A DNA stretch of 64,000 nucleotides from assembly GCA_026713825.1 (NCBI GenBank), contig JAPONS010000049.1, forward strand, positions 64,340-128,339, read 5' to 3'. The position numbers and the translations under genes were made by a program. The DNA comes from Chloroflexota bacterium. GTDB lineage: Bacteria > Chloroflexota > Dehalococcoidia > Lucifugimonadales > UBA1127. Below the pieces are notes generated by a model. That model saw only the letters and a program-made list of their open reading frames with translations, did not search any database and was not told the origin of the DNA. This document shows, piece after piece, positions 23,440 through 54,406 of the stretch. Numbering within the stretch: the stretch's first letter is position 1; each line of letters begins with the position of its first letter.

Positions 23440-23631
23440 TTGAGGGGCGAACAGGGTCGCGGACAATTTGCGAAGAGCCCCTACGGTGGCCGCGACCCCC
23501 TGTCGCCCGCCCCCTGGATCCCGGCTTTCGCCGGGAAGACGATAGAGGTGGGCGCCCTTCGATTTTCCTCAGGGCGAACGGGTTGGGCCGCTCCCCTGGA
23601 TTCCCGCGAAAGCGGGAATGACGGTAGGGGG
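23440..23631. repeat. Cluster of REP-like repeat units upstream of the NuoE~F gene
   Basis: Contains CCCCTACGGTGG, CCCTGGATCCCGGCTTTCGCCGGGAAGACG, CTTCGATTTTCCTCAGGGCGAACGG and CCCTGGATTCCCGCGAAAGCGGGAATGACGGTAGG. Confidence 0.75.
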
Positions 23632-23684
23632 GTCTCCGTGATAAGATTCACGCAGTCTGGGGCAAGCGCCGCAAAGGGGGCCAA

Positions 23685-26031: not shown

Positions 26032-26073
26032 TGAGAGTGAAGGGACTCTTTTGAGAGAATAGAGGCAGAGCGA

Positions 26074-28668
26074 ATGACGGAGCCCATCAAGCTCACTATA
26101 GACGGGGTTGAGGTCGAGGCGAAGCCGGGGCAGACGGTGCTGCAGGCGGCCATCGACAACAACGTGTACATCCCGTACCTGTGCTACTGGCCGGGCATGA
26201 AGCCCTACGGCGCGTGCCGGATGTGCTGCGTCGAGGTCGAGGGCGGCCGGGGCACGCCGGCGTCGTGCACGCTGCCCGTGGCGAACGGGATGGTGGTGAA
26301 CACCCTCGGCAGCGAGATTCGCGGTCTGCGGGAGAGCGTGCTGGAGCTGCTGCTGTCGGAGCACCCGCACGGCTGCCTGACGTGCCACCGCATCGAGCTG
26401 TGCGGGCCGCAGGACATCTGCCTGCGCCACGTGCGCGTCATGGACCGGTGCGTGGTGTGCCCCAAGAACGAGCGGTGCGAGCTCAAGGACACCGTGCGTT
26501 ATGTTAACGTCAACCTCGAATCGCCGCTGGCCTACAACTACCGGAACCTCCAGATAGAGACCGGCGACCCGTTCTACGACCGCGACTACAACCTGTGCAT
26601 CGTCTGCGCGCGGTGCGTGCGGGTGTGCGAGGAGATGCGCGGCGACGACGCCATCGCGATGATCGAGCGGTCCGGCACGGTGCTCGTGGGCACGTCGCAG
26701 GGGATGTCGCTGCTGGAGTCGGGCTGCGAGTTCTGCGGCGCGTGCATCGACGTCTGCCCCGTCGGCGCGCTGGTTGAGCGCGACCACAAGTGGGACAAGG
26801 CGGTCAACGTGGTGAAGACCACGTGTACCCACTGCTCCGTCGGCTGCCAGGTCAACCTTGAGGTGGACCGGCGTGGGCGCGTGATCCGCTCCATTGGCGA
26901 CTGGGAGTCGCCCGTCAACACGGGGCAACTCTGCTACATGGGCAAGTTCGGCAACGAGTTCGTGAACAGCCGTCGCAGGCTCAAGACCCCGATGCTGCGG
27001 CAGCACGGCGAGCTTGTGGAGGCGACGTGGGAGCAGGCGCTGGAGGCCATCGCAGAGCGGCTGCCGGACTACAAGGGCGGCGCGTTCTCGCTGCTGGTGT
27101 CACCGCGGTCGACGGACCAGCAGGCGTACTTGGCGGGCCGGTTCGCGCGGGAGGTCATGGGTACGGACAACGTCGACCTCTCCGTCGACCACCGGCCGGA
27201 GCTGGTGGAGCCGCTGGGCCGCCGGCTCGGCATAGCCGCCGCGACGGGGACCGTGGCAGAGCTGGAGAGCGCGGGCTGCGTGCTGGTTGTCAACGCCAAC
27301 GTCACGGAGGAGCACAACGTCGCCGCCATTCCCATCAAGAAGGCGCACAAGGCGGGCGGCAAGCTGGTGGTCATCGACACGCGCGAGGTGGAGCTCTCGC
27401 GCTACGCGGACCTCTGGCTGCGGCCGTACCCCGGCACGGAGCGCGCGCTGGTGGGCGGTATGCTCCGGGTCATCCTGGACGAAGGACTGCAGGACGACGC
27501 GTTCATTGCCGAACACAGCGGCGGACTCGACGCGCTGCGGGAGTCGCTGGCTGGCTACGCGCTGGACGCCGTGGCGGACGCGACGGGCGTTGCCGCCGAC
27601 AGGATCGCGGCGGCGGCGCGGGCCTTCGCGCAGGCGGGCAGCGCGGCAGTCGTGTACGCGCTGGACAACGTCGCGCAGGAGGAGCGCGCTCCGGTCACTG
27701 ACGCACTGGTCAATCTCGCGCTGGCGACGGGCAACGTCGGCAAGGCTGCGAGCGGCATGTTCCCGCTGCGGCCCGGTGCCGCGAGCCAGGGCGCCCTCGA
27801 CATGGGTTGCTCGCCGGGCGACGCCGGGTTGAGCGCGGCGCAGTCGCTGGAAGCGATCGCTCAGGGAAGCGTGAAGGCAGCCATGGTCCTCGGCGACAGC
27901 GTGATGTTCACGCCCGAGGCTGTCCATACCCTGACCCACACGGACTTCCTCGTGGTGCAGGCCATGTTCCCGTCGGAGCTGACGGAGGCCGCCGACGTGC
28001 TGCTGCCGATGACCTCCTTCGCGGAGGAGGACGGCGTGGTGACGAGCCTGGACCGCTGGGTCCTGCGCCGCCGCGCGGCCATTGACCCGGCCGGCGAGGC
28101 CCGTCCCAGCGACGCGCTGCTCACGCAGCTTGCGCGGCGCATGGGCGCGAACGGCTTCGGCGGGCACCCGTCGGAGGTGCTGGAGGCCATCCGCGAGGCC
28201 ATCCCTGCGTACGCCGTCGCTACGGACGAGGCGCTTGATGCGGGCGGCGCGCAGATACCGTGGTCAATGCCGGAACGCGCCGAGCTGACGCCGCTCGCCC
28301 CGATGCGGGCTCGCGACTATGATGCTCCGTTCCTCTTTGCGCCGGGCCGGGTGCTCGCGCTGCCTGAGGGCGAGGTGGAGGTAGTGCGCAGCAACGGCAA
28401 GAACGCCATCCGCCGCGAAGACGCGCTGGAGCTGCATCCGGACGACGCCTCCACAATGGGCGTCGCGCCGGGCGACGTCATCGAGGTTGCGGCCAACGGG
28501 CACCGCATTCGCGGGCTTGCTCGGACGACAGGCCCACTGCGGGGCGTCGTGTCCGCGACGGTGCTGTTCGGCGAGCTGGCGACGGCCCTCGACCAGAGCG
28601 CGGACGACGACCCCATGCTGCGGGTGCCCGGCCTCCACGTCATGCCCGTGCAGGTGGCGAAGGCTTAG
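26074..28668 (+). CDS. NuoG-like Fe-S subunit with molybdopterin-oxidoreductase fold (NADH dehydrogenase 75-kDa type)
   Basis: N-terminal 2Fe-2S ferredoxin (CYWPGMKPYGACRMC), His/Cys cluster (HPHGCLTCHRIELC), 4Fe-4S motifs (CIVCARCVRVC, CEFCGACIDVCP), MopB 4Fe-4S (CTHCSVGCQ). The region equivalent to the FDH active site reads DNVDLSVDHRP, with no Cys or Sec. Confidence 0.8.
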   Translation: MTEPIKLTIDGVEVEAKPGQTVLQAAIDNNVYIPYLCYWPGMKPYGACRMCCVEVEGGRGTPASCTLPVANGMVVNTLGSEIRGLRESVLELLLSEHPHGCLTCHRIELCGPQDICLRHVRVMDRCVVCPKNERCELKDTVRYVNVNLESPLAYNYRNLQIETGDPFYDRDYNLCIVCARCVRVCEEMRGDDAIAMIERSGTVLVGTSQGMSLLESGCEFCGACIDVCPVGALVERDHKWDKAVNVVKTTCTHCSVGCQVNLEVDRRGRVIRSIGDWESPVNTGQLCYMGKFGNEFVNSRRRLKTPMLRQHGELVEATWEQALEAIAERLPDYKGGAFSLLVSPRSTDQQAYLAGRFAREVMGTDNVDLSVDHRPELVEPLGRRLGIAAATGTVAELESAGCVLVVNANVTEEHNVAAIPIKKAHKAGGKLVVIDTREVELSRYADLWLRPYPGTERALVGGMLRVILDEGLQDDAFIAEHSGGLDALRESLAGYALDAVADATGVAADRIAAAARAFAQAGSAAVVYALDNVAQEERAPVTDALVNLALATGNVGKAASGMFPLRPGAASQGALDMGCSPGDAGLSAAQSLEAIAQGSVKAAMVLGDSVMFTPEAVHTLTHTDFLVVQAMFPSELTEAADVLLPMTSFAEEDGVVTSLDRWVLRRRAAIDPAGEARPSDALLTQLARRMGANGFGGHPSEVLEAIREAIPAYAVATDEALDAGGAQIPWSMPERAELTPLAPMRARDYDAPFLFAPGRVLALPEGEVEVVRSNGKNAIRREDALELHPDDASTMGVAPGDVIEVAANGHRIRGLARTTGPLRGVVSATVLFGELATALDQSADDDPMLRVPGLHVMPVQVAKA

Positions 28669-32923: not shown

Positions 32924-33226
32924 TAGCGGACACGGCACATTTCACTTACAAGACGAGAAAAAAAATTAAGGCACTGTCTCTCTGGTTATGTCATGTAACG
33001 AGCACACTGGTGTGTGGGGGTGGCCGCAAGCAACGAAGAAACTGGTGACCTCGGTGTTGTGCGACGGCGATGCGGGGGCGGCGGTTGCGTGTGTCATGGC
33101 TCGACGGTAGCGGAGGGCGAGGGTTGGGGGCAATGGGGTTGTGGCAGGGTGTGTGGGGCCCCGACGACCTCGATGGTGAACGCGGCGACGCTGGCGCCTT
33201 CGGTTGCCTTTCCTCCCGCTGCTAAC

Positions 33227-33385
33227 CTACGGGTGGTGGTGGGATTCTGCGTAGTGGAGGGCCAGGGGGTCTGTGCCGAAGTCTCCTCTTGGGTTTCGCA
33301 GGACGCTGTGGGTGTGGTTGGCGTCGTTCTGCGTGCAGTCGTACTCGATGAGGAGGTCGTCGGACTGGACGCGGTAGCAGAGCGG
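33227..33385 (-). pseudogene. Remnant of the 3' end of a DUF3500 gene (duplicate of 34232-34390)
   Basis: Translates to ...YRVQSDDLLIEYDCTQNDANHTHSVLRNPRGDFGTDPLALHYAESHHHP*, nearly identical to the C-terminus of the intact gene. Homology stops upstream of YRVQ. Confidence 0.8.
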
Positions 33386-33419
33386 CGAGCGGAGCTCCGA
33401 CCCACTTTGATGCTCAAGC

Positions 33420-34103
33420 CTATGGTGGGGATCCATGACCTTCCCAGTCAGCTGTCGCCCCGCCTAACTCATGGTATTGTTCTTCGCTTGAAGCAGCCAA
33501 CAGTCGCCAACTTACGAGACACAGGCTTCCATACAAGATCCCTTCTGCCAGTCGCTGTAGCAATCCTCGCCACGGGTCGAAGTCGGGTGCAAGCGCCAGC
33601 ATGTAAAGGGTGATAAAGACCGCGGCCAACAACACCCAGCCCGCTCGTCTGTGGGGCGCAAGGTTCTTGTTGAGCGACAGAAGCACCAATCCCAACGTGG
33701 TCATGAGAAGTGTGAACACGCTCAAGAGATTGTGGACATTTTGGGAAATACTGCCGGTACTTGGACAACCTAGATCACAAGGAGCAAACGCCGAGCCAAG
33801 GTAAGCGATCGGTTCGCCGGAAAGCAACCACATGCCCATTAAGCCAATACCGGTCAGTTGTGTAATTCGAGCAACCGTGACCAGCATGAAAAGGCCAAGC
33901 AGGCCGAGGGGCAAAAACCCCAAATAGCCGATGTGCCAGCTCCATTCCGAACCTGTGGCATTGAGTTCGCTAATGTATTGACCAATATGACTGTAGTCGG
34001 CCTTCAGTGATGCGCCACCGAACACCACCGTCACGTAAAGCAGGATGAGCGCAGTGATGATCAAACGCTTACCCATCCAGAATCTGTATCTGTTCAAATC
34101 CAA
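33420..34103 (-). CDS. DUF998-like polytopic membrane protein (low-GC cassette)
   Basis: Hydrophobic protein with ADYSHIGQYISELNATGSEWSWHIGYLGFLPLGLL, typical of DUF998. TTG start at 34103 (alternative ATG at 34076). Visibly lower GC than the flanks. Confidence 0.65.
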   Translation of the reverse strand: MDLNRYRFWMGKRLIITALILLYVTVVFGGASLKADYSHIGQYISELNATGSEWSWHIGYLGFLPLGLLGLFMLVTVARITQLTGIGLMGMWLLSGEPIAYLGSAFAPCDLGCPSTGSISQNVHNLLSVFTLLMTTLGLVLLSLNKNLAPHRRAGWVLLAAVFITLYMLALAPDFDPWRGLLQRLAEGILYGSLCLVSWRLLAASSEEQYHELGGATADWEGHGSPP

Positions 34104-34177: not shown

Positions 34178-34231
34178 CGGCTTACGCATCCTGGCCGTGC
34201 AACTCTTGAACCCGAATATCAAGCTGATTGC

Positions 34232-35329
34232 CTACGGGTGGTGGTGGGATTCGGCGTAGTGGAGGGCCAGGGGGTCTGTGCCGAAGTCTCCTCTTGGGTT
34301 GCGGAGGACGCTGTGGGTGTGGTTGGCGTCGTTCTGCGTGCAATCGTACTCGACGAGGAGGTCGTCGGACTGGACGCGGTAGTAGTGGGGGGCTTCGCGC
34401 TCGGACGAGCCCGCCCACGCGAAGTGCAGCTCCTGAAGGCTGTCGGGCTCCAGCAGGGGCGCGTAGCCGTCGACGATCTCATCCGGCAGATGGTCGAGGT
34501 AGACGCGGACGAGGCGCGCGAGGGCGTCGCGCTGGGCGGCGTCCATGGCGCTGGCGGGCAGGCCCTTGGGCGTGAGGGTGTAGCGGACCATGTCGTCGAG
34601 CTCGGGGGTGAGGCCGAGGGCCGTGCGGAGGCGCTCGCCGCCGGGGCCGGGGCCGCCGATGGGGGGCATGGCGCCGTCCTCGACCTGCGGGCGGTTGGTC
34701 TGGACGATGTCGGTTGGCGGCACGGGCGCGATGACGGCCCGCGAGAGCTGCTCGGGTGACAGGAGGGCGAGGAGCTCTCGGGCGGCGTCCTCCTCGGCGG
34801 CCAGCGGGCGCAGACCGACGCCGCCGGGAAGCAGCGAGCGTGCGGGCTCGGCGCCGAAGAAGGCGGGCGTCGGGTATACGAGGCCGCCGCGCACGGTGTA
34901 GTGGAGGCTCAGGTGGTGGCCGCCGATGCGCCAGCTCCAGCCGCTCTCATCGCCGGGCGTGCCGAAGACGGCGACGAAGTAGTTGGCGGGGTCGCGCAGG
35001 CGGGTGCCCGGCAGGTCGCCGTAGGTGCGGTCCGGGAAGTTCGACGAGCGGTCAACGACGTTCTCCATGCCCGTGAGCAGCGACGCGTAGTTGTAGCCGC
35101 GCTCGCTGAGCCCCGTCGCCATGAGCTGCCAGACCTTCTGCTGCTGTCGGGGGGCAAGGTCGCCGAGGCGCAAGCCCGCGCGCGGGGTGGGCGTGTAGAA
35201 CCAGCGCCGGCGCTCCTCCTCGTCGCCGAAGGGGAACGTCCCGGCGCTGCGCTGCTCGGGGGACAGCGCGGCGAGGAACTCGGACGCCGCCTGTGCCATT
35301 GTGTCCGCGAGGGCCGAGACCTTCTCCAT
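34232..35329 (-). CDS. DUF3500 family protein
   Basis: Start at MEKVSALADTMAQAASEFLAALSPEQR (residue 178 of the track ORF). Family-typical blocks: FPFGDEEERRRWFYTP, WRIGGHHLSLHYT, HYYRVQSDDLLVEYDCTQNDANHTHSV. Confidence 0.8.
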   Translation of the reverse strand: MEKVSALADTMAQAASEFLAALSPEQRSAGTFPFGDEEERRRWFYTPTPRAGLRLGDLAPRQQQKVWQLMATGLSERGYNYASLLTGMENVVDRSSNFPDRTYGDLPGTRLRDPANYFVAVFGTPGDESGWSWRIGGHHLSLHYTVRGGLVYPTPAFFGAEPARSLLPGGVGLRPLAAEEDAARELLALLSPEQLSRAVIAPVPPTDIVQTNRPQVEDGAMPPIGGPGPGGERLRTALGLTPELDDMVRYTLTPKGLPASAMDAAQRDALARLVRVYLDHLPDEIVDGYAPLLEPDSLQELHFAWAGSSEREAPHYYRVQSDDLLVEYDCTQNDANHTHSVLRNPRGDFGTDPLALHYAESHHHP

Positions 35330-35501
35330 GTCATGCTCCTTTGGGCCGGTTGCGCTCGGCGTACGTGTGCGCCCGTGCTCGCGCCCGTGGAACGCGAGTC
35401 GAGTATAGTATAGCCTCGGTGTTCGTGGCGGCAATGACGGACTGTAGTCACGCCCCAGACGCACTGGAACGGCCACAAATCGCACCCATACGGAGAGAGA
35501 C

Positions 35502-36074
35502 ATGACGCGCATCAAGCCGATCACCGACAAGGCGCAGCTGCCGCCGGAGCAGCACCACGAATGGGACGCGATCCTGGCCGAGCGCGGGCGCGTCCGAGGG
35601 CCGTTTGGGGTGTTGCTCCACAGCCCGGGGCTCTCGATGGGCTTCCTGGGGAGCGTCGCCAACGCGCATCCCCACGGCGTGGTGAGCGACGCGCTGCACG
35701 AGCTCGCGATCCTGGCCGTCGCGTACGAGGACGACGCGCCGTACCAGTGGTCGGCGCACGTCGCGCCCGCTCGCGCCGCGGGGGTGAGCGACGCGGCGAT
35801 CGAGGCCGTGCGCGCGGGCGACGACGCGGGCGGCCTCGGCGAGGACGAGCGCGGGGTCATCGAGCTGTGCCGTCAGCTATGCCGCACGAACCGCGTCGAG
35901 CAGGCGCTGTTCGACGAGCTGACGGCGCGGCAGGGCGAGCGGTGGGGGATCGTGATGATCGCGACCGTTGGCCTCTACCGGTACGTGGCCGCCGTCAACA
36001 ACGCCTTCGAGATCGACGTGGTCGAGGGTGACGACCAGTTGCCGGTGCGGCGGGGGTTCCACAGCGGGGGGTAG
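35502..36074 (+). CDS. Carboxymuconolactone decarboxylase (AhpD-like) family protein
   Basis: 190 aa; the HELAILAVAYEDDAPYQWSAHV helix pair is typical of the CMD family. There is no CxxC. Confidence 0.7.
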   Translation: MTRIKPITDKAQLPPEQHHEWDAILAERGRVRGPFGVLLHSPGLSMGFLGSVANAHPHGVVSDALHELAILAVAYEDDAPYQWSAHVAPARAAGVSDAAIEAVRAGDDAGGLGEDERGVIELCRQLCRTNRVEQALFDELTARQGERWGIVMIATVGLYRYVAAVNNAFEIDVVEGDDQLPVRRGFHSGG

Positions 36075-38654: not shown

Positions 38655-38683
38655 GTGTGGCATAGTAGCCTGGGAGGTTGTTC

Positions 38684-39985
38684 ATGCTGACGCGCGAGGA
38701 CAACGAGCTCATCTGCCGCACGGGACCCGGCACGCCGATGGGGCGTGTGCTCCGGCGCTACTGGCATCCCTGCCTGCTTTCCTCCGACCTCCCCAACAAC
38801 GACGGCCCGCCCGTGCAGGTGAAAATCCTCGGCGAGAACCTCGTCGCGTTCCGCGATGGCGAGGGGCGCGTGGGGCTCATCGGCGAGCGTTGCCCGCACC
38901 GGGGGGCGTCGCTGTACTACGGGCTGAACGGCGGTGGCGGGCTGATGTGCATCTACCACGGCTGGAAGTTCGACGCGGACGGCAACTGCGTCGACATGCC
39001 CTCGGACATGCCCGGCAGCCGGTTCCTGGAGAAGGTGCACACGACGTCGTACCCGGTCGTCGAGTCGGCAGGCATGGTGTGGGCGTACATGGGGCCGCGG
39101 GATCTGCAACCTCCGCCGCCGGACTTCCTCTTCAACCGGCTGCCGCTCGATCAGGTCGTGGCGGCGAAGTCTCCCGTGTACTGCAACTACCTGCAGAGCA
39201 TTGAGGGGAACATCGACTCGTCGCACCTGGGGACTCTTCACCGGCGGCACGCGGACTTTACCCTTGAGCCGGACGAGACGGACCGGCCGGGGGTGCCGTC
39301 GGCGAACCAGCGGTCGTACCTGCTGGCGCACTACCGCTTCGCCGAAATCAACGTGCAGGACACGGCGTACGGCTTCCGGCTCATCGGCATGCGGCCGACG
39401 GACGCGGGGCACCGGCACCTGCGCATCACCAGCCACGTCTTCCCCGTGTGCAGCATGATCGCCAGCCCGGGCGTGGCAAGCGGCACCTTCTTCATCGTGC
39501 CGACGGACGACGACAACTGCATGCGCTTCTTCGTGCGGTGCAACCCCGACCGGGCGATCACCGACGACGAGCGCGCGTCGACGTACGCGGAGAACACGAT
39601 CATGGACCCGGCCGACCCTCGGCGGCGGCTCAAGCGGGCCGACAACGAGTACCTGATCGACCGCGCGGTGCAGCGGACAACGCTCGTCTCCGGCATCTGG
39701 CCGAACCCGGAGCAGGACTACGCGGTGACGGAGAGCATGGGGCGCATCGTCGACCGGACGCGCGAGCACCTCTACTCGGCCGACGGGGCGATCATCCGGC
39801 TGCGGCAGCTCATGATCCGCGCGGCCAAGGGTCTCGACGAGGACATCGACCTGCCGGCGCTCGACCCGGGCATCCCGTACCACCTGATCCGCTCAGAGGA
39901 GGTCATCGTGCACGAGGACGACGACCCGTGGCTCGCGGGCGCGGACGCAGGGGAGACGGCGCGGCCGGGGGAGCGGCTGTGGTAG
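38684..39985 (+). CDS. Rieske [2Fe-2S] ring-hydroxylating oxygenase, alpha subunit (paralog 2, full length)
   Basis: CPHRGASL...CIYHGWKF Rieske motif. Collinear with the gene at 3-1208 (e.g. VWAYMGPR, NYLQSIEGNIDSSHL versus NWVQAMEGDIDTAHL). Confidence 0.9.
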   Translation: MLTREDNELICRTGPGTPMGRVLRRYWHPCLLSSDLPNNDGPPVQVKILGENLVAFRDGEGRVGLIGERCPHRGASLYYGLNGGGGLMCIYHGWKFDADGNCVDMPSDMPGSRFLEKVHTTSYPVVESAGMVWAYMGPRDLQPPPPDFLFNRLPLDQVVAAKSPVYCNYLQSIEGNIDSSHLGTLHRRHADFTLEPDETDRPGVPSANQRSYLLAHYRFAEINVQDTAYGFRLIGMRPTDAGHRHLRITSHVFPVCSMIASPGVASGTFFIVPTDDDNCMRFFVRCNPDRAITDDERASTYAENTIMDPADPRRRLKRADNEYLIDRAVQRTTLVSGIWPNPEQDYAVTESMGRIVDRTREHLYSADGAIIRLRQLMIRAAKGLDEDIDLPALDPGIPYHLIRSEEVIVHEDDDPWLAGADAGETARPGERLW

Positions 39986-42322: not shown

Positions 42323-42348
42323 GAACGCACTCTCGCGAAGGATTGCGC

Positions 42349-44229
42349 ATGTACGTCATTGGGACTGCGGGCCACGTTGACCATGGGAAGTCGACGCTGG
42401 TGAAGGCGCTTACAGGCATTGACCCGGACCGGCTCCAGGAGGAGAAGGACCGGGAGATGACCATCGAGCTGGGGTTTGCGTGGTTCACGCTGCCCAGCGG
42501 CCGCGAGATCAGCGTCGTCGACGTGCCGGGGCATGAGCGGTTCATCAAGAACATGCTCGCGGGCGTGGGCGGGATAGACCTCGCGATGCTCATCGTCGCG
42601 GCGGACGAGTCGGTGATGCCGCAGACCCGCGAGCACCTGGCCATCCTCGACCTGCTGCAGGTGAAGCGGGGCATCGTCGTGCTCACGAAGGCGGACACCG
42701 TCGACGAGGAGTGGGCGGACCTCGTGCGCGGCGAGGTCGAGGAGGCGCTGGAGGGCACGACGCTGGAGGGCGCCCCGATGGCGCTCGTCTCGGCCGTCAC
42801 GGGGCAGGGGCTGCCGGAGCTCATGGCGCTCATCGACGCGATGCTGGAGGAGACAGTGCGGCGCGAGGACCTTGGGCGGCCGCGGCTGGCCATCGACCGC
42901 AGCTTCGTCATGCCGGGCTTCGGCACTGTCGTGACGGGGACGTTGCTGGACGGCGCGCTGACGGTGGGGCAGGAGGTCGAGCTGCTGCCGTCTGGGCTGC
43001 GGCGGCGCATCCGCGGGCTGCAGTCGCACCAGCAGCGCATCGAGTCGGTCGGGCCGGGGAACCGGGTCGCCGTGAACCTCGCGAACACGACGCAGGAGGA
43101 GGCGGAGCGCGGGCAGGTGCTGACGCTGCCGGGGTGGCTGCAGCCGACGACGACGGTGGACGTGCAGATACGCATGGCGCCCGGCGCGCCGATGCCCATC
43201 CGGCACAACCTCGGCGTTACCTTCCACGCCGGGACGAGCGAGAGTTTCTCCCGCGTGCGGTTGTTGGACGTGGGCGAGCTGCGGCCGGGGCAGGAGGGCT
43301 GGGCGCAGGTACACCTGACCGACCCGATTCCGCTGGTGAAGGGTGACTACTTTGTGGTGCGTTCGTCCCAGTGGACGCTGGGCGGCGGGCGCGTCGTCGA
43401 CCCGCACCCGGCGCGGCACCGGCGGTTCCAGCTCGGCGTGCTGGAGAAGCTGGAGGTCATGGCCGAGGGCTCGCCGGAGGACCTTGTGCTGAAGGCGCTC
43501 GAGGGCGCGGAGCCGTGCGGGCTCGCGGCGCTGGCGCGGGCGGCAAACCTCGCCGTCGCCGAAACCGCGACGATTGTGGGCGAGCTTGCGGAGGTGGGCG
43601 ACGTGGTAGTGCTGGGCGGCGCGCCGTCGGACTCGGGCGCCGTGCTGATGACGACACCCGGCTGGGCGACCGTTCGCGGGCAGGCGGACGCGGCGGTGCA
43701 GGCCTACCACACGGCGAACCCACTGCGGCCGGGGCTGCCGCGCGAGGAGCTGCGCAACCGGCTGAAGCTCTCGCAGGCCGTGTTCACGCTCGTGCTGCAG
43801 CGGCTGGCCGACGAGGGCGTGCTTGAGGAGACGGGGGCGGTAGTCCGCGCGCCGGGCCACCGCGTCGTGTTGTCCGACGCGCAGGAGGCCGAGGTCGCGA
43901 GGTACGTCGCCGCGCTGGAGCGCGAGCCGTACGCGCCGCCGACGGAGATCGCCATCGACGCGGCGCTCGTGGGTGTGCTGGCGGAGCGCGGCAGCGTGGT
44001 GCGCGTCAACGACTCGATCGTGTTCGCGGCGGGCGCGTACCGGGAGATTGTCGACCGCATCGTGGCGCACCTGCGGGAGCACGGGGCGATCACGGTCGCG
44101 GACGTGCGGGACACCTTCGGGACGTCGCGGAAGTACGCGCTGCCGCTGCTGGAGCACCTCGACCAGCTACACGTCACGCGGCGGCAGGGCGACCAACGCG
44201 TGCTGCTCCGCGACCCGGGGCGGTCGTGA
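42349..44229 (+). CDS. selB: Selenocysteine-specific translation elongation factor SelB
   Basis: [20 protein letters not shown] (G1), DVPGHERF (G3), TKAD (G4), and a ~280-aa C-terminal winged-helix extension. About 627 aa, as for bacterial SelB. An alternative TTG start is at 42343. Confidence 0.9.
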
Positions 44230-45047
44230 TGCAGGAGCGCGTCTACGGTGTGGACTTCAGCGGCGGGAAGCAGGCGGGCAACAAGATCTGGATAGCACAG
44301 GCCGTGCCCTACCGCCGGGGAATCGTGGTGGAGGACTGCGCACCAGCGACCGACTTCCTGGGGTGTGCCGCCGACCGCGGTGAGACACTATCGGCCCTGC
44401 GCCGCTTCATCGCCGGAGCGGAAAGCGCGGCGTTCGGCTGCGACTTTCCCTTCAGCCTGCCGAGGGAACTGCTAGCCGCCGAGTCGTGGGCGGAGTTCGT
44501 GGCTGGCTTTGCGAACCGATACAGTACGGAGCACGAGTTCAAGGCGCATTGCCTGGAAACAGCGCTGCAATCATTGGGCCGCAAGGAGCTGAGACGGCAG
44601 ACCGACGTCGAGGCGAGGGCGCCGTTCTGCCCATACAATTTGCGCATCTACAAGCAGACCTACTTCGGCATCAAGGACGTGCTCGGCCCACTGGTGGCCG
44701 ACAACGCCGTCAACATCCCACCCCTGCACTACTCGGAAGACGACGCTCCATGGGTCATGGAGGTGTGCCCGGCAAGCACGCTCAAGGCGTCCGGGCTTTA
44801 CGGGTCCTACAAGGACGCAAGGGGGAGCGTCGACGCTAGAGATGGCATCCTGGAGGCGTTGAAAGGCTCCGGCCGCCTCACATTCGGCAACGGGGACGTC
44901 CGGCAGCGAGTGCTGGAAGACCGGCATGGGGACGCGCTGGACAGCGTGATTGCCGCGGACGCAACGTTTCGCGCGATTGCCGACCCTGAACGCATAGTTC
45001 AGGCACACCGTTTTCCCTACTATCTTGAGGCGTGCATATTTGTGTGA
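44226..45047 (+). CDS. DUF429-like predicted RNase H-fold nuclease
   Basis: N-terminal VYGVDFSGGKQAGNKIWIA and C-terminal GDALDSVIAADATF acidic motifs. The start (GTG 44226 / ATG 44229) overlaps the selB stop TGA (44227-44229). Confidence 0.5.
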   Translation: MMQERVYGVDFSGGKQAGNKIWIAQAVPYRRGIVVEDCAPATDFLGCAADRGETLSALRRFIAGAESAAFGCDFPFSLPRELLAAESWAEFVAGFANRYSTEHEFKAHCLETALQSLGRKELRRQTDVEARAPFCPYNLRIYKQTYFGIKDVLGPLVADNAVNIPPLHYSEDDAPWVMEVCPASTLKASGLYGSYKDARGSVDARDGILEALKGSGRLTFGNGDVRQRVLEDRHGDALDSVIAADATFRAIADPERIVQAHRFPYYLEACIFV

Positions 45048-45082
45048 GCCCGTCCACTCTGCATCCAAGCGGAGGCATTCAC

Positions 45083-46309
45083 ATGGCCCTTGACCTGTAC
45101 CGGACTGCCGCGCAGATCGACGCTGCCGTCGCGATTGCGGACTTTGGCGCGGCGAGGGAGCGGCGGATGGATGCGGCGCTCGCGGCGCTGCGGGATGGCG
45201 ACGCCGCGACGCTGAACGCCCGCGTGGAGGCGGCGCAGGGGTTGCTGGCGTTTTTGCCTGCGGAGGCCGTCGAGCCGCCGGGCGCGGTCTTCGACGCGCC
45301 GGCTGCGCCCTCGGACTTTAGTGTGGTTGCTACTGATGGGTCTCACATTGACGTGAACCGGCACCTGCCGCTGCGGTGCGCGCTCGTCAACATCGGCGGG
45401 TGCAGGCTGACGTACGGCGCGGGCGCCGACGCAGAGCTGTTCAGCCGACCTCGGCTGCGGACGTCGGACGCGGAGCTCTTCTTGCGAGACCCGGACACAC
45501 CCTCGGCGCGGCATGCGGTCGAGGGCGCGCTGATGGGACTGGTGCGCACGGTTGAGGAGGCGGTCGCGCTGGCCGAGGCGGTGGAGGCGGACGACGGCGG
45601 GCTGCCAACGCTCGCGCTGCTGGACGGGACACTGGTGATGTGGGAGCTCGGCGGCGAGCTGCCGCCCCGGGGGCGCTACCCGGACTACGTGCGCGAGCAG
45701 CTCCTCGACGACGGGCTGCTGGCGGCGCTGGAGCGCATCCGCGACGCGAGTGCGCATCGGCAAGTGGCGGTCGCGTCGTACATCAGCCTGCCCAACAGCG
45801 CGGAGGTGGTGAACCTGCTGCGGCTGGGGCTGTGCGACCTCGACCCCGTCGGGCATTGCCAGACGCACTGTCGCGCGCTCGTGCCGGGCACGAGGCGGTG
45901 CGACGCGGCGCACGGGCTGACGGACCGCGAGCTCTTCGAGCGGACGCTGGCGCCGGGGCAGCGCTCGGCGGTGTTCGCGAGCCGCTCGCCCGTTGCGCGC
46001 GACGCCTACGGGTCGAACCGGGTCCACTTCTTCTACGTGAACGTGGAGGAGGAGATCGGCCGCGTCGAGGTTCCGGCGTGGGTGGCGCTCGACCCGGCGT
46101 TGCTGTCGCTGGCGCACGCGCTCGTCGTCGACAACGCCCGGCGCGGGGCGGGGTACCCCGTCGCGCTGCAGGAGGCGCACGAGCAGGCCGTCGTCACGGG
46201 CGCGGACCGGGAAGCCTTCCGAAACATGGTGGAGCGCGCCCTAGAGGAGCGTGGGTTGCCCGTGTACACTTCACAGAAGCAGCGCTCCAAGCGCCGCCCC
46301 TGGGTTTAG
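45083..46309 (+). CDS. nurA: NurA-domain 5'-3' nuclease
   Basis: VVATDGSHIDVNRH (catalytic DGS), LALLDGTLV, and C-terminal GYPVALQEAHEQAVV are NurA hallmarks. GGAGG SD before the ATG at 45083. Confidence 0.7.
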   Translation: MALDLYRTAAQIDAAVAIADFGAARERRMDAALAALRDGDAATLNARVEAAQGLLAFLPAEAVEPPGAVFDAPAAPSDFSVVATDGSHIDVNRHLPLRCALVNIGGCRLTYGAGADAELFSRPRLRTSDAELFLRDPDTPSARHAVEGALMGLVRTVEEAVALAEAVEADDGGLPTLALLDGTLVMWELGGELPPRGRYPDYVREQLLDDGLLAALERIRDASAHRQVAVASYISLPNSAEVVNLLRLGLCDLDPVGHCQTHCRALVPGTRRCDAAHGLTDRELFERTLAPGQRSAVFASRSPVARDAYGSNRVHFFYVNVEEEIGRVEVPAWVALDPALLSLAHALVVDNARRGAGYPVALQEAHEQAVVTGADREAFRNMVERALEERGLPVYTSQKQRSKRRPWV

Positions 46310-46343
46310 GCTCCCCGACCGCAATCACCGACGAGGTACCGCT

Positions 46344-46937
46344 TTGACGACTGTTCCCCATCCTGAGGCTCGCATCGGCGAGGTGGTGGAGGCCGGCTCC
46401 ACCGAGTTCGCTGCCGAGTGCTACACGCTCTACGGCGCGCCGCCGCTGGGCGCGCTGGTGCGCGTCGGCGACCCGGCGGTGTACGGCGTCGTGTACAGCG
46501 TGACGACGGCGGCGCTCGACCCCGGACGGCGTGTGGCGGCACGCGGCGCGGGCGAGCCGGACGAGGCGTCGGTGTACCGTAACAACCCGCAGATTGCGCG
46601 GCTGCTGGCGACGCATTTGCAGGCGCTGGTGGTCGGCCACGACCGCGCGGGAACGCTCGCGCAGCGGCTGCCGGCCGCGCCGCCGCGCATCCACGCCTTC
46701 GTGTACTGCTGCGATGACGCCAACGTGCTCGCCTTCACCGAGCAGCTCGACTACCTGCACTTGCTGACGACGGCCAACGTGCCCGCCATCGACGAGGTCA
46801 TCGCGGCCAACGTGCGGCTCACGGCGGAGGGCCGCGACGACGGGGACGGCTTCCGCGAGCGGGCGGCCCACACCCTCGCGACGGAGCTGGCGAACGACGT
46901 TACGCGGCTGAACGCCATTCTGCGAGGCATCGCATGA
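46344..46937 (+). CDS. Hypothetical protein resembling a stand-alone HerA N-terminal (HAS-barrel) domain
   Basis: TTG start. RIGEVVEAGSTEFAAECYTLYGAPPLGALVRVGDPAVYGVVYSV has the beta-barrel-like pattern found at HerA N-termini. No Walker motifs. The stop overlaps the HerA ATG (ATGA). Confidence 0.45.
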   Translation: MTTVPHPEARIGEVVEAGSTEFAAECYTLYGAPPLGALVRVGDPAVYGVVYSVTTAALDPGRRVAARGAGEPDEASVYRNNPQIARLLATHLQALVVGHDRAGTLAQRLPAAPPRIHAFVYCCDDANVLAFTEQLDYLHLLTTANVPAIDEVIAANVRLTAEGRDDGDGFRERAAHTLATELANDVTRLNAILRGIA

Positions 46938-48721
46938 CGCCGGAAGAGACGCGGCCAGCGGACGTACCCTCTCCCAAAGCCGGTTTCAACGCCGATGGAC
47001 ACATGGAGGAAGGCGCCCTGGATTCCGGCATTCGCCGGAATGAGGGTGTTGGGGTGGCGTCGGGCGCTCTCCTTGGCGCGGTGGTCGGCGGCTCCCTGAC
47101 GGAGGGCGTGGAGGTGCGGCTGGCCGAGGGGGCGTCCGTCGAGGACATCCCCGTCGGCAGTTATGTCGTCATCCAGGGCGAGCGGCGCCGGTTCTTCGGC
47201 ATGGTCAGCGAGGTCAGGCTCGCGTCCACCGACGCCCGCTTGAGGAGCGCGCCCGGCGGGTTCACCGATCCCCTCGTTACGCGGGCACTGTCCGGCACGG
47301 CGGCCTACGGGACGATCACTGTCCGGCCGCGGCTCACGCTGCCCGCCGTCGCCGGCGTGGAGGGCGACATCGCACCCGCGCGCACGGTGCCGTCGCACTT
47401 CTCGCGGGCGACGCGCGCCACGGACGCGGACGTCGCGCAGGTGTTCGGCGCGGAGGGCGGCGGCAACTTCGCCGTGGGCACGCCGCTGGACATGGACGCC
47501 GTGGTCTGCCTGGACCTCAAGACGATGCTGCAACGCTCCAACGGCGTCTTCGGCAAGAGCGGCACCGGCAAGAGTTTTCTGACCAGGCTGCTGCTCATCG
47601 GCGTGCTGCAGAGCCGCCTGTCGGCGCTGCTCATCTTCGACATGCACAACGAGTACGGCTGGGAGGGCGGCGACGTGGAGCGCGGGCGGCGCGTGAAGTC
47701 GCTCAAGCAGCTCTTTCCGTCCGAGGTGTCCGTCTTTGCGCTGGACGAGCAGCGCGCCCGGGGCGCGAAGATACAGCCCGACTTCACCGTCGAGATCGGC
47801 TACGACGAGATCACGCCCGAGGACGTCATGGCCCTCCGCGAGACCCTCGGCGTCTCCGATGCCGCGGCGGAAGCCGCCTTCGCGCTGGGCCGCAAGTTCG
47901 GCGACCGCCGGTGGCTGCGTGAGTTCCTGCGGCTGGAGGGATCGGACGAGATCGGCGAGCTGGCGAACGCCATCAACGTGAACGGCGCGGCCCTTGCGAC
48001 GCTGCACCGCCGCCTGACCAACCGCATCGCGCGGCTGCCCTTCCTGTCGGACGCGGTGGGGGCGGACGCGGTGGCCGCAATCATGGACCACCTCGACCGC
48101 GGGAAGCACGTTGTGCTGGAGTTCGGGCGGTACGGCGACGACGTGATTGCCTACATGCTCGTGGCGAACCTGCTGACGCGGCGCATCCACGACCGCTACC
48201 GGGAGCGGCAGTCGGCGGACGCGGGCGAGGGCCGCGCGACAACGCCGCTCACCATCGTCATAGAGGAGGCGCACCGTTTCCTGAGCCCGGCGGTGGCGGC
48301 GCAATCGCCCTTTGGGGTGATCGCGCGGGAGATGCGCAAGAACAACGTGACCCTGCTGGTCGTCGACCAGCGGCCCAGCGCCATCGACGCCGAGGTGCTG
48401 AGCCAGGTGGGCACGAAGGTGTGCTGCCTGCTGGACGACGAGCGCGACGTGGACGCCGTCATGGCGGGCGCGTCGGGCAGCCGCGAGCTGCGCACCGTGC
48501 TGGCGGGCCTGCGCTCCCGGCAGCAGGCGCTCTTCTTCGGCGAGGCGGTGCCCATCCCCGTCGCGGTGCAGGTGCGCGACTACGGCACGGACACGAGCTA
48601 CGACGCGCTCATACGGCGGCGGCCGCGACGCGAGGCGGCGACCGTTCGCGCCGAGGGAAATCGAGGCGCGGACGCCCCGCCAGCCTCGGAGGATGAGGAC
48701 CACGACCCGCTGTTTGGGTAG
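46934..48721 (+). CDS. herA: HerA/FtsK-superfamily ATPase (DUF87 HerA-like)
   Basis: Own barrel region (VGSYVVIQGERRRFFGMVSEV), Walker A GVFGKSGTGKSFL, Walker B LTIVIEEAHRF. The start is ambiguous (ATG 46934, ATG 47003 or GTG 47054) because a REP unit sits at 47009-47056. Confidence 0.8.
   Translation: MTPEETRPADVPSPKAGFNADGHMEEGALDSGIRRNEGVGVASGALLGAVVGGSLTEGVEVRLAEGASVEDIPVGSYVVIQGERRRFFGMVSEVRLASTDARLRSAPGGFTDPLVTRALSGTAAYGTITVRPRLTLPAVAGVEGDIAPARTVPSHFSRATRATDADVAQVFGAEGGGNFAVGTPLDMDAVVCLDLKTMLQRSNGVFGKSGTGKSFLTRLLLIGVLQSRLSALLIFDMHNEYGWEGGDVERGRRVKSLKQLFPSEVSVFALDEQRARGAKIQPDFTVEIGYDEITPEDVMALRETLGVSDAAAEAAFALGRKFGDRRWLREFLRLEGSDEIGELANAINVNGAALATLHRRLTNRIARLPFLSDAVGADAVAAIMDHLDRGKHVVLEFGRYGDDVIAYMLVANLLTRRIHDRYRERQSADAGEGRATTPLTIVIEEAHRFLSPAVAAQSPFGVIAREMRKNNVTLLVVDQRPSAIDAEVLSQVGTKVCCLLDDERDVDAVMAGASGSRELRTVLAGLRSRQQALFFGEAVPIPVAVQVRDYGTDTSYDALIRRRPRREAATVRAEGNRGADAPPASEDEDHDPLFG
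47009..47056. repeat. REP-like unit (WIPAFAGMT-type variant) inside the 5' end of the HerA ORF
   Basis: CCCTGGATTCCGGCATTCGCCGGAATGAGGGTG, hairpin TTCCGGC/GCCGGAA, translated as ALDSGIRRNEGV. Confidence 0.7.
48642..48666. repeat. REP-like unit (FDFPQGER-type, inverted orientation) inside the 3' end of the HerA ORF
   Basis: CCGTTCGCGCCGAGGGAAATCGAGG is the reverse complement of the CTTCGATTTCCCTCAGGGCGAACGG family. Confidence 0.6.
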
Positions 48722-48854: not shown

Positions 48855-49088
48855 ATGATTGAATCCGGGATAACTTCAAGAGGGCAGACCACATTGCCCA
48901 AGGCCGTGCGTGAGGCCCTCTCCGTTCAGTCAGGAGACAGGGTGCGTTACATCATCCAGAACGGTGAAGTCAGGATCGTGCCCGTGCGCCCCATTGGCCG
49001 GCTTTTCGGCGCACTGCGGCATACCGGCGATGCGGTAACCCTCGAGGACATGGAACGCGCGATCATCGATGGGGCCACCGACTCGTGA
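48855..49088 (+). CDS. AbrB/MazE/SpoVT-type antitoxin (VapB-like)
   Basis: ITSRGQTTLPKAVREALSVQSGDRVRYIIQNGEVRIVP is a swapped-hairpin (SpoVT/AbrB) motif. The stop overlaps the toxin start. Confidence 0.8.
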   Translation: MIESGITSRGQTTLPKAVREALSVQSGDRVRYIIQNGEVRIVPVRPIGRLFGALRHTGDAVTLEDMERAIIDGATDS

Positions 49089-49504
49089 TTTCCGTCGACA
49101 CCAACGTCATTGTCCGGTATCTCGTGAACGACGTCGCCGAGCAGGCGCTCGCCGCCCGAACGTTCCTGGAGGGGTTGACCCCCGAACACCCGGCGTTCAT
49201 ATGCCGCGAGGTTGCGATTGAGTTGGTCTGGGTATTGGAGCGGGCCTACGGGTTCAGCCGTGCCCAGATTTCGGACGTTCTTGTCGAGTTGATTGCCACC
49301 GACAGCATCGTGGTCGAGGCTGCGGACGACGTGGCCGGCGCGGCCAGTCGCTATCGCCGCGGAGGCGTGGGATTCGCGGACCTCATGGTCCTCGCGGCGG
49401 CCGAGCGAGCCGGTGCCACTCCGCTTCATACCTTTGACCGTCGGCTCGCGGGGGTGGACGGAGCGATTCTGGTGAACAGCCCGGCAGCGGGCGCTGCTTC
49501 TTGA
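49085..49504 (+). CDS. vapC: PIN-domain toxin VapC
   Basis: ISVDTNVIVRYLVND N-terminus and later FADLMVLAAA motif. 139 aa. Confidence 0.8.
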   Translation: MISVDTNVIVRYLVNDVAEQALAARTFLEGLTPEHPAFICREVAIELVWVLERAYGFSRAQISDVLVELIATDSIVVEAADDVAGAASRYRRGGVGFADLMVLAAAERAGATPLHTFDRRLAGVDGAILVNSPAAGAAS

Positions 49505-51840: not shown

Positions 51841-53121
51841 GTGCCGCTTGAGACCAACATCGCCACGCTCATGCAGGAGCGGCTGCCGCCGCCGCTGCTT
51901 GCCGCGCTGCGCGCCGCCGGCGAGGTCGGCGAGCCGCACGGCTTCCGCGTCTTCCTCGTCGGCGGCATGGTGCGCGACCTGCTCGCGGAGCGCCCCCCCG
52001 GCGACCCGGACCTGATGGTGCAGGGGCCGACGCTCTCCATGAACGCGGCGGCGGCATTCGCCGTCGTGCTTGCGAGCGCGCTGGACGGCAGCATCGGAAG
52101 GCCGTCGCTGTTCGGCACCATCAAGCTTGAGGTGGACGATCTGGCCGTTGACGTCGCGACGGCCCGCACGGAGACCTACGCGCACCCGGGGGCGCTGCCG
52201 ACCGTCAGCCCAGCGCCGGTTGAGGCTGACCTTGCGCGGCGGGACTTCACGGTGAACGCCATCGCGGTAGACCTCGCCCCTGCGCGGTTCGGCCGGACGC
52301 TGGACCCGCACGGCGGCTTCGGCGACCTGCGCCGCGGCGCGCTCGCCGTGCTGCACGACGGGAGCTTCGCCGACGACCCCACGCGGGCTTTTCGCGCCGC
52401 CCGCTACGAGGCCCGCCTCGGCCTGCGCATGACGCCCGCGACCGAGGCGGCGCTGCGGCGGGACATAGGCCACGTTGACGCCCTCAGCGGCGACCGGGTC
52501 CGCCACGAGATGGAGCGCGTATTCGCGGAGCGTGAGCCGGAGACGGCCCTCGCCCGCGCGGACGAGCTCGGCCTGCTGGAGGCGGCGATGCCGGGGCTCT
52601 CGTGGAGCGCGGCCCTGAGCGATGCGGCCCCGGCAGTGCGGGAGGCAGAGCCGTCCCTTCGGACAGCGGGTCCGACGGGGTGCCTCGCGCTGCTGGCGTC
52701 GCCGCTCTCGCACGATGACGCCGAGCAGCTCATCGAGCGGCTGAACGCGCCGAGGCCGTGGGCAAAGGTCATCGAGGACACTGCCCTGGTATGGGAGCAG
52801 CTTCCGTATATCGCGCCGGCGGGCGTTGCGCCCTCCGTCGTCTACGACATGCTGGAGGGGGCGTCGCCGGAGGCCGTGCTCGCGTGGGCCGCGCTCTCAA
52901 AGGGCGCCGTCGCAGCCCGCCTGCGCGACTACTACGACAACCTCCGGCACGTTCAACCGTTCCTGGGCGGAGACGACCTGCTGTCGCTCGGCGTACCGCA
53001 GGGGCCGCTGGTCGGCGAGCTGCTGCGGGAGCTGCTGAACGCGCGCCTCGACGGGCTCGCCGCCACGCGCGAGGACGAGGAGGCGCTGGTGCTGCGGCGC
53101 TTGTCATCGCGGGTAGAATGA
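51841..53121 (+). CDS. CCA-adding tRNA nucleotidyltransferase / poly(A) polymerase family protein
   Basis: Head-domain motifs VFLVGGMVRDLL...GDPDL and RRDFTVNAIA. The 5' part of track ORF 50566.. is an out-of-frame overlap with the MFS gene. Confidence 0.8.
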   Translation: MPLETNIATLMQERLPPPLLAALRAAGEVGEPHGFRVFLVGGMVRDLLAERPPGDPDLMVQGPTLSMNAAAAFAVVLASALDGSIGRPSLFGTIKLEVDDLAVDVATARTETYAHPGALPTVSPAPVEADLARRDFTVNAIAVDLAPARFGRTLDPHGGFGDLRRGALAVLHDGSFADDPTRAFRAARYEARLGLRMTPATEAALRRDIGHVDALSGDRVRHEMERVFAEREPETALARADELGLLEAAMPGLSWSAALSDAAPAVREAEPSLRTAGPTGCLALLASPLSHDDAEQLIERLNAPRPWAKVIEDTALVWEQLPYIAPAGVAPSVVYDMLEGASPEAVLAWAALSKGAVAARLRDYYDNLRHVQPFLGGDDLLSLGVPQGPLVGELLRELLNARLDGLAATREDEEALVLRRLSSRVE

Positions 53122-53153
53122 AGGCTATCACTCCATCCTGAAAGGAATGCGCA

Positions 53154-53507
53154 ATGCCAAAGGAAGCGTATGTCTACACCTGGAAGCGCTGAACCACCTG
53201 CCGCAAGGTGAGAGAGGTTCTCTCACAGGCAGGCGTGGAGGTCACAGAGCGTGACTTCTTTGAGGATCGGCTGTCCGAGGACGAGATTCGCGCGCTGGCG
53301 TCGGCGTCCTCGGCGACGGCTATGTTCTCGGCGAAAAGCCCCACGGTGAAGAAGCTGGGGCTCGACCCCGCGGCGCTGAGCGACGACGAGAAGGTGCAGC
53401 TCATGTCGGGCGAGCCGCGCCTCATCCGCCGGCCCATCGTCGTCATCGACGGCGTCACGTACCCCGGCGCGACGGTGAAGTCGCTGGCGGGGGTGCTGGG
53501 CGGCTAA
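53154..53507 (+). CDS. ArsC/Spx/YffB-family thiol oxidoreductase, probable selenoprotein (Sec encoded by TGA 53190-53192)
   Basis: ATG 53154 (AAGGA SD). Translation is MPKEAYVYTWKR-U-TTCRKVREVLSQAGVEVTERDFF..., continuous with track ORF 53208... This matches the family N-terminus (I/V)Y-x4-C-x2-C-(R/K)K-x-x3-L with U at the first Cys. The later IRRPIVV motif is also present. Confidence 0.7.
53197..53233 (+). promoter_or_regulatory. Bacterial SECIS-like stem-loop 4 nt downstream of the in-frame UGA
   Basis: Lower stem CCTGCC (53197-53202) / GGCAGG (53228-53233). Upper stem GTGAGAGA (53208-53215) / TCTCTCAC (53219-53226). Apical loop GGU (53216-53218). Confidence 0.6.
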
Positions 53508-53521
53508 CTCTCGAATCGCCC

Positions 53522-54406
53522 CTACGACTCAGCCTCCCCCTTCGTACGCGCTGTCTCACGGCGGCGGAAGAAGAGGTATTGCTGCGCGTAGCCCGCGTAC
53601 GGCCCGAATGCCTCGCGCGTCCATGCCCAAAGATCGCGGTAGCTGAGGCGCCGGCCGTCGAGATACCAGTCTTCCAATGCGCGCCGCACCCAGCGGTCGA
53701 TGGGCGCCGCGTCCAGTTGGTCCAGCGCGAAGAGGAGGACGCAGTCGGCGACCTTCTCGCCGACGCCGCGCAACGCCACCAGCGCGGCCTTCGCGTCCTC
53801 GTACGGCACGGCGCGGAGCGCGTGGAGGTCCACGCCGCCCGCGGCGACGGCCTCCGCCGTGGGCGCGACGTACTTCGCCCGGTAGCCGAGGCCAAGCTCG
53901 CGCAGGCGCGTCTCGCCCGCCGAGGCCAGCGCGGACGGCGTCGGGAACGCGCGGCGGGTCAGGGCGCCGAGCGTCACGGACTCCCCCAGCGTGTCCGCCA
54001 GCGTCTCCTGCATTTTCGCGATGCGCGGGATGTTGGAGTTCTGCGAGCAGATGAAGGCGATGAGGCACTCCCACGGGTCCTGCCGCAGGATGCGCAGCCC
54101 CCAGTGCTGGTGCACGGCCGCCGACAGCCGCTCGTCCTCGCAGAGATGCGCGTAGATGGCGGGGAGGTCGTCGTCGAGGCGGAAGTAGTCGCGGACGGCG
54201 CGGACGGCGTCGGGGTGCGCGTCGGGGTCGAAGGTGACGCGGAGGCCGTCGGCGTCACGCTCCAGCGTCAGCAGCCGGCCCTCGATGAAACCGCTCCAGA
54301 CGCCGCCGTCGTTGTGCCAGCGAAAGGCCTGGCCGCTCTCCAGCGTCAGCGGCAGGTCAAGCGGCTGGTCGACGGCGACGTGTGCGGCGGCGAGTGCGGT
54401 GGTCAT
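53522..54406 (-). CDS. ogg: 8-oxoguanine DNA glycosylase / HhH-GPD family (Ogg/AlkA-like)
   Basis: Start at MTTALAAAHV (residue 216 of the track ORF). LESGQAFRW N-domain, HhH-GPD region LRGVGEKVADCVLLF..D..PIDRWV. Confidence 0.8.
   Translation of the reverse strand: MTTALAAAHVAVDQPLDLPLTLESGQAFRWHNDGGVWSGFIEGRLLTLERDADGLRVTFDPDAHPDAVRAVRDYFRLDDDLPAIYAHLCEDERLSAAVHQHWGLRILRQDPWECLIAFICSQNSNIPRIAKMQETLADTLGESVTLGALTRRAFPTPSALASAGETRLRELGLGYRAKYVAPTAEAVAAGGVDLHALRAVPYEDAKAALVALRGVGEKVADCVLLFALDQLDAAPIDRWVRRALEDWYLDGRRLSYRDLWAWTREAFGPYAGYAQQYLFFRRRETARTKGEAES

Follow-up and report, generated by a model that had tools for sequence, protein, structure and literature searches.

Here we describe a gene at 53154-53507 (+) that very probably encodes a selenoprotein of 117 residues with the ArsC/Spx fold. 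It lies in a window of 64 kb, the whole stretch of Chloroflexota DNA that was analysed. The UGA codon at 53190-53192 (+) is predicted to be read as selenocysteine (Sec), residue 13, by means of a downstream SECIS element. Translation would begin at ATG 53154 and, judging by comparison with relatives, the ribosome would insert Sec at this UGA in place of termination. A stem-loop of the mRNA at 53208-53226, within the coding region, would act as the bacterial SECIS and recruit SelB-GTP-Sec-tRNA(Sec), the SelB presumably coming from the gene at 42343-44229. In the product, helix 1 would begin with a U13-x-x-C16 centre, in the place of the CxxC found in Spx and other members of the family.

The gene had escaped ORF calling. 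As the original prediction noted, the ORF list for the locus holds only 53208-53507, a frame of 99 aa that starts at an internal GTG. The longer frame outlined in that prediction is present in every detail: a single frame runs from ATG 53154-53156 through PKEAYVYTWKR and TGA 53190-53192 to the stop codon TAA at 53505-53507. Its translation reads MPKEAYVYTWKR, then the TGA at 53190-53192, then TTCRKVREVLSQ and onwards, which places the motif U13-T-T-C16 at the junction. Because an in-frame TGA occurs at 53139-53141, ATG 53154 is the only start possible upstream of the Sec codon. A Shine-Dalgarno-like AAGGA (53142-53146, +) stands 7 nt ahead of it. Among 73 distinct relatives the equivalent upstream start is ATG in 66, and a Shine-Dalgarno-like motif precedes it in 63. 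The gene is probably co-transcribed with the CCA-adding-enzyme gene that ends 32 nt upstream; a promoter and terminator scan of 52900-53800 found nothing.

Relatives were sought in two ways. Among 5.8 billion proteins 35 were identified, and 80 loci came from a scan in which each species was represented by one genome. The record titles assign these loci to Dehalococcoidia, SAR202, other Chloroflexota and Syntrophales (Smithella, Syntrophaceae and MAGs labelled 'Deltaproteobacteria'). The codon aligned to the UGA could be tallied in 79 parsed loci (L048 and L076 stand outside the tally). It is TGA in 73 of them and a Cys codon, TGT or TGC, in the other six (L053, L061, L062, L064, L072 and L075). 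No codon other than TGA, TGT and TGC was found at this position among the 79 parsed loci, so that Cys is the only sense alternative in the orthologs. The Cys homolog P0029 (118 aa), which is 43% identical to the window protein, reads FYTWKKCSTCRD and its Cys aligns to the UGA. Cys homologs also cover residues 1 to 18. The proposal that the TGA sits at the first redox-active Cys of the family and gives a U-x-x-C motif is thus borne out by the relatives, and likewise by the alignment of the UGA to Cys10 of Spx.

The sequence ahead of the TGA is conserved as protein. In the 72 distinct Sec forms the nine codons that precede the TGA are conserved and contain no stop. Trp occupies position -3 relative to the UGA in all 72, positions -6 and -5 are [FLV][YF], and position -1 is Arg or Lys in 70. 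The Cys at +3 is invariant.

Some members of the family have additional cysteines. In 28 of the 72 distinct Sec forms a Cys at -4 extends the motif to C-W-x-x-U-x-x-C. Examples are L017, L019, L022 and L025, and those listed are from Syntrophales, Smithella or 'Deltaproteobacteria' MAGs and a few Dehalococcoidia-labelled MAGs. In the Dehalococcoidia forms position -4 is Trp, Thr or His. The Cys at -4 may be a third redox-active residue. Another locus, L077, reads U-S-T-C-C and has a further Cys after the motif.

The putative SECIS consists of a conserved core at 53208-53226 (+), in which an 8-bp stem (53208-53215 paired with 53219-53226) closes a GGU loop at 53216-53218. The core is part of an extended two-tier hairpin at 53197-53233 (+) that includes a lower stem of 6 bp (53197-53202 paired with 53228-53233). 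A 66-nt segment with the hairpin folds to -29.4 kcal/mol (z = -2.85 against dinucleotide shuffles), a stability that 2 of 200 shuffles reach. The lower stem takes a slightly shifted register in the minimum free energy fold.

Conservation of the hairpin was assessed in a gap-free alignment of 70 distinct Sec-form sequences from the TGA to +54. In the upper helix (columns 19-26 with 30-37) 93.8% of cells are paired, and compensatory changes on both sides occur at five of the eight pairs. The core six pairs of this helix also emerge from an independent RNAalifold prediction. When the 3' partner is slid by one to three columns, pairing over the whole two-helix structure drops from 75% to 33-54%. 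The pair 20/36 is C-G in 51 sequences and U-A in 17, with two exceptions (Fisher p = 3e-15, phylogeny ignored). At column 20, the second base of a Val/Ala codon, exchange of U and C is nonsynonymous; column 36 falls on the third base of a Ser/Leu codon. A V/A replacement through column 20 is thus matched by a synonymous change in the third position of a Ser codon at column 36. Pairs 21/35 and 23/33 covary likewise (p = 3e-7 and 4e-8, again with phylogeny ignored). The first base of the loop is G in 62 of the 70 sequences, and seven have a UUU loop without G.

The upper stem is gone from most of the Cys forms. A 26-nt hairpin averages -9.8 kcal/mol in the Sec forms. There are five distinct Cys forms, and in four of them it is weak or absent (-2 to -4 kcal/mol). 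The fifth, L062 (Smithella, TGC, 1540-1593), keeps most of the stem at -7.2 kcal/mol and has the look of a recent Sec-to-Cys conversion. The two-tier geometry originally proposed holds only in part. Its coordinates are correct and its 8-bp upper stem-loop is conserved with compensatory changes. The 6-bp lower tier, which the window shares with its close relatives, is paired in only 49.8% of cases over the whole family and is therefore a feature of the window's clade.

The hairpin has no counterpart among the Rfam families. A search of the whole window with Rfam at the gathering threshold gave no SECIS-type or tRNA-Sec match, and at E values up to 10 the region 53120-53300 gave only three sRNA matches at chance level. 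Rfam is not known to include a general model for bacterial SECIS elements. Like the E. coli fdhF-type SECIS, the window hairpin is a stem-loop within the coding sequence just 3' of the UGA and has a small apical loop. Its sequence is unrelated to that of fdhF, and the conserved stem starts 15 nt after the UGA. The spacing between UGA and stem in the minimal E. coli SECIS element is 11 nt. A small apical loop, usually with a G, is a common feature of bacterial SECIS elements (PMC1088965).

The window also encodes the elongation factor that Sec insertion would need. An intact selB, the gene for the selenocysteine-specific elongation factor, is found at 42343-44229 (+) with a TIGR00475 score of 347.5 bits (cut-off 242.25). 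It lies 8.9 kb upstream of the selenoprotein gene, in agreement with the distance of 9 kb given earlier. The syntenic selB ortholog in a relative with a 2.86-Mb record (L001) has the SelB winged-helix domains PF09106 and PF09107. Searches with ARAGORN, Rfam and Pfam revealed no selA, selD or tRNA-Sec in the 64-kb window, nor were these present in the fetched loci; ARAGORN found no tRNA-Sec in the window and 60 loci. BSepDB catalogues Dehalococcoidia MAGs with 46-49 selenoproteins (PMC13326102), which establishes Sec as a trait of the class.

That selA, selD and tRNA-Sec were not seen in the window or the fetched loci could favour a reading in which one of the standard amino acids (Trp, Cys or Gly) is inserted at the UGA and the hairpin is a generic stimulator of read-through or plain mRNA structure. 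We consider this very unlikely. Of the other 32 genes in the window, six end in TGA, which shows that the code is the standard one and that TGA is not reassigned. The intact selB has no known role besides Sec insertion, and the selenoprotein-rich MAGs of the class argue in the same direction. The restriction of sense codons at the site to those for Cys is the classic signature of Sec/Cys exchange.

Even less probable is a true stop at the TGA, with a functional gene confined to the 99-aa ORF from GTG 53208 and so lacking the first strand and the CxxC. This is how ORF callers report the locus, and all close relatives are stored in this way in the databases. Of the 35 database relatives, 34 are 86-103-aa proteins truncated at the N-terminus that cover only 72-85% of the query, in line with the suspicion that the locus would be mis-annotated as a truncated protein of 99 aa. 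However, the called starts vary between orthologs and fall on different internal codons. No start is consistently called at the equivalent of 53208, and the N-terminal strand is conserved in 72 distinct relatives. There is thus no conserved internal start, and calls from differing internal codons are the expected product of a conserved in-frame stop. GTG 53208 is not preceded by a Shine-Dalgarno-like motif, whereas the 12 upstream codons are kept as protein in two phyla with their own ATG and Shine-Dalgarno motif. The truncated protein would furthermore lose Pfam positions 1-14, the redox centre included. Least credible of all is a pseudogene in which a Cys codon has decayed to TGA, for although TGC or TGT becomes TGA by one base change, the same TGA stands in about 72 distinct sequences that are just 42-94% identical at the protein level, with strong conservation on both sides, no other stops or frameshifts and a co-evolving hairpin kept downstream.

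The selenoprotein reading is also the one that gives a complete family domain. For profile scoring the U of the window protein was written as C. The full product scores 56.1 bits with PF03960 (threshold 24), and its residues 8-100 fall on profile positions 1-65; the alignment of the 99-aa ORF starts no earlier than profile position 15 and scores 41.6 bits. Only with the N-terminal extension do PF03960 and TIGR01617 match from profile positions 1-2, and for PF03960 the alignment then begins at profile position 1 with residue 8.

The assignment to the ArsC/Spx family holds at the level of PF03960, and within it the protein lies closer to Spx/MgsR than to the true arsenate reductases. Its best NCBIfam match is TIGR01617 (Spx/MgsR, 'arsC_related') at 70.1 bits, a borderline score below the cut-off of 75.05. 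With this model the scores of eight diverse relatives range from 60 to 86.5 bits, and two of them pass. The model for glutaredoxin-dependent arsenate reductase, TIGR00014, gives 40.9 bits, far below its cut-off of 106.05. The best solved structures by sequence are those of Spx (7f75, 6ghb and 1z3e; E about 5e-10). In this alignment U13 falls on Spx Cys10 and C16 on Cys13, followed by a shared RK-x-R.

The fold was tested on the Cys homolog P0029, a stand-in 43% identical to the window protein. The AF2 model of P0029 (pLDDT 87.3) has a strand at residues 5-9 and then a helix at 14-26, with the CxxC at the N-terminus of that helix. Foldseek matches this model to Spx, YffB and ArsC-family structures at a TM score of about 0.8. 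A thioredoxin-like fold of the ArsC/Spx (PF03960) type is thus supported for the 117-residue protein, as modelled through its homolog.

Selenoproteins of this kind have been described before. An 'arsenate reductase, UxxS' selenoprotein was reported from the Sargasso Sea (PMC1088965), and 'ArsC-like' and 'distant ArsC homolog' selenoproteins from Deltaproteobacteria (PMC1794560). The GOS data contained 'Arsenate reductase 2' (cd03032), a UxxC family with 42 Sec and 238 Cys sequences (PMC2398784), and an 'arsenate reductase-like protein, UxxC' corresponds to the NF041106 type (PMC13188914). The UxxC ArsC-like selenoprotein has therefore been a published kind since 2008 (PMC2398784, PMC13188914). 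These reports agree with the earlier remark that ArsC-like selenoproteins are known from marine metagenomes (PMC1088965, PMC2398784).

The GOS family best fits the present protein in kind, in a comparison made by description only. It has likewise an ArsC/Spx-type domain (cd03032, ArsC_Spx) with Sec first in UxxC. Its Cys homologs outnumber the Sec forms and it comes from uncultured marine and environmental bacteria, whereas genomes of Dehalococcoidia/SAR202 and Syntrophales are the source of the present clade. NF041106 (ArsC_rel_Se_1) belongs to the same superfamily and has the UxxC motif and a similar length (profile of 107 positions). However, the window protein scores 29.1 bits and the eight relatives 23.5-35.2 bits against its cut-off of 85. 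The present clade is therefore a separate subfamily outside this curated model.

Spx/MgsR proteins (PDB 1z3e, 3gfk and 7f75) have CxxC in the same place followed by RK-x-R, and share S-x-[KR]-S and (L/I)RRPI with the window protein. They differ in that the first Cys is replaced by Sec in the window protein, which at 117 aa is without the C-terminal tail present in the approximately 131-aa Spx. The Gly52 region of Spx falls in an alignment gap. The R773-type ArsC (TIGR00014) and the Sargasso UxxS form also belong to PF03960 and use Sec or Cys as the equivalent nucleophile, but that branch has a C/UxxS motif and the window protein has UxxC. The position that we take to be Arg60 of R773 ArsC is Ser in the window protein. 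No ars genes are adjacent to 53154-53507.

By analogy with its relatives, the U13/C16 centre would most likely cycle between selenol/thiol and selenenylsulfide on the thioredoxin-like scaffold. For a UxxC on such a scaffold this couple appears to be the likeliest chemistry, and it would make the protein a small reductase or a redox switch. A more specific role is conceivable but doubtful. The protein could be a functional counterpart of Spx/MgsR, a Sec redox switch that binds RNA polymerase and reprogrammes transcription under oxidative or disulfide stress. Spx is the best match both by sequence and by structure, but its C-terminal tail is absent from the window protein. If this role were true, the protein would be the first selenoprotein transcription regulator. 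Gene context provides no clue to function, since clustering of the neighbourhoods of the 80 loci gave no partner conserved beyond the close clade. Within that clade the neighbours are the CCA-adding-enzyme gene upstream and an OGG-like glycosylase gene that converges downstream.

The window contains several other features. A crude GC3 scan for TGA-interrupted genes produced one candidate at 34757, which was rejected as antisense to a real minus-strand gene. Such a scan would miss short N-terminal segments, and it missed the 53154-53507 gene as well. A direct repeat of 184 nt (33218-33401 and 34223-34406; 90% identical and 1005 nt apart) brackets an island of low GC content, 51-56% against 66.6% for the window. 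The island has an ORF (33420-34103, -) for a 227-aa multi-pass membrane protein, and the second copy of the repeat overlaps the 3' end of the gene at 34232-35860 (-). This arrangement suggests an insertion with duplication of the target.

Directly after selB, at 44226-48721 (+), are an unknown 273-aa ORF, NurA (45029-46309), a 230-aa ORF and a HerA-type helicase (46718-48721) with HAS-barrel and DUF87 domains. The gene order selB-NurA-HerA is the same in the 2.86-Mb relative, and the NurA-HerA module could serve DNA repair or defence. Further along are a 77-aa ORF (48855-49088, +) and, overlapping it by 4 nt, a 139-aa ORF (49085-49504, +). Synteny with Pfam-annotated genes of the same relative points to an AbrB/MazE-type antitoxin and a PIN-domain VapC-like toxin, which would form a type II toxin-antitoxin pair in both genomes. 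A fused NuoE-NuoF-like protein with 2Fe-2S thioredoxin-like, FMN-binding and 4Fe-4S domains is encoded at 23628-25991 (+), and is followed at 26041-28668 (+) by a NuoG/FdhA-like molybdopterin oxidoreductase. The frame of the latter is uninterrupted, so that a formate dehydrogenase, if it is one, would be of the Cys and not the Sec form; its product shows no Molydop_binding C-terminal domain at E < 1e-6. Two paralogous Rieske oxygenases (3-1208 and 38669-39985, +) have LigXa-like C-terminal domains, which suggests a capacity for O-demethylation of aromatic or lignin-derived compounds.

For the family, the consequence of the selenoprotein reading lies mainly in annotation. The proteins now stored for this gene and for 34 of its 35 database relatives are without the catalytic centre, and NCBI's curated seleno-ArsC model misses the clade. 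Used together, a dedicated profile and the conserved SECIS would put right the annotation of Dehalococcoidia, SAR202 and Syntrophales genomes and lead to better selenoproteome counts. The current picture of selenium use is unchanged, and the clade adds one further case of Sec/Cys exchange at the nucleophile of a CxxC motif.
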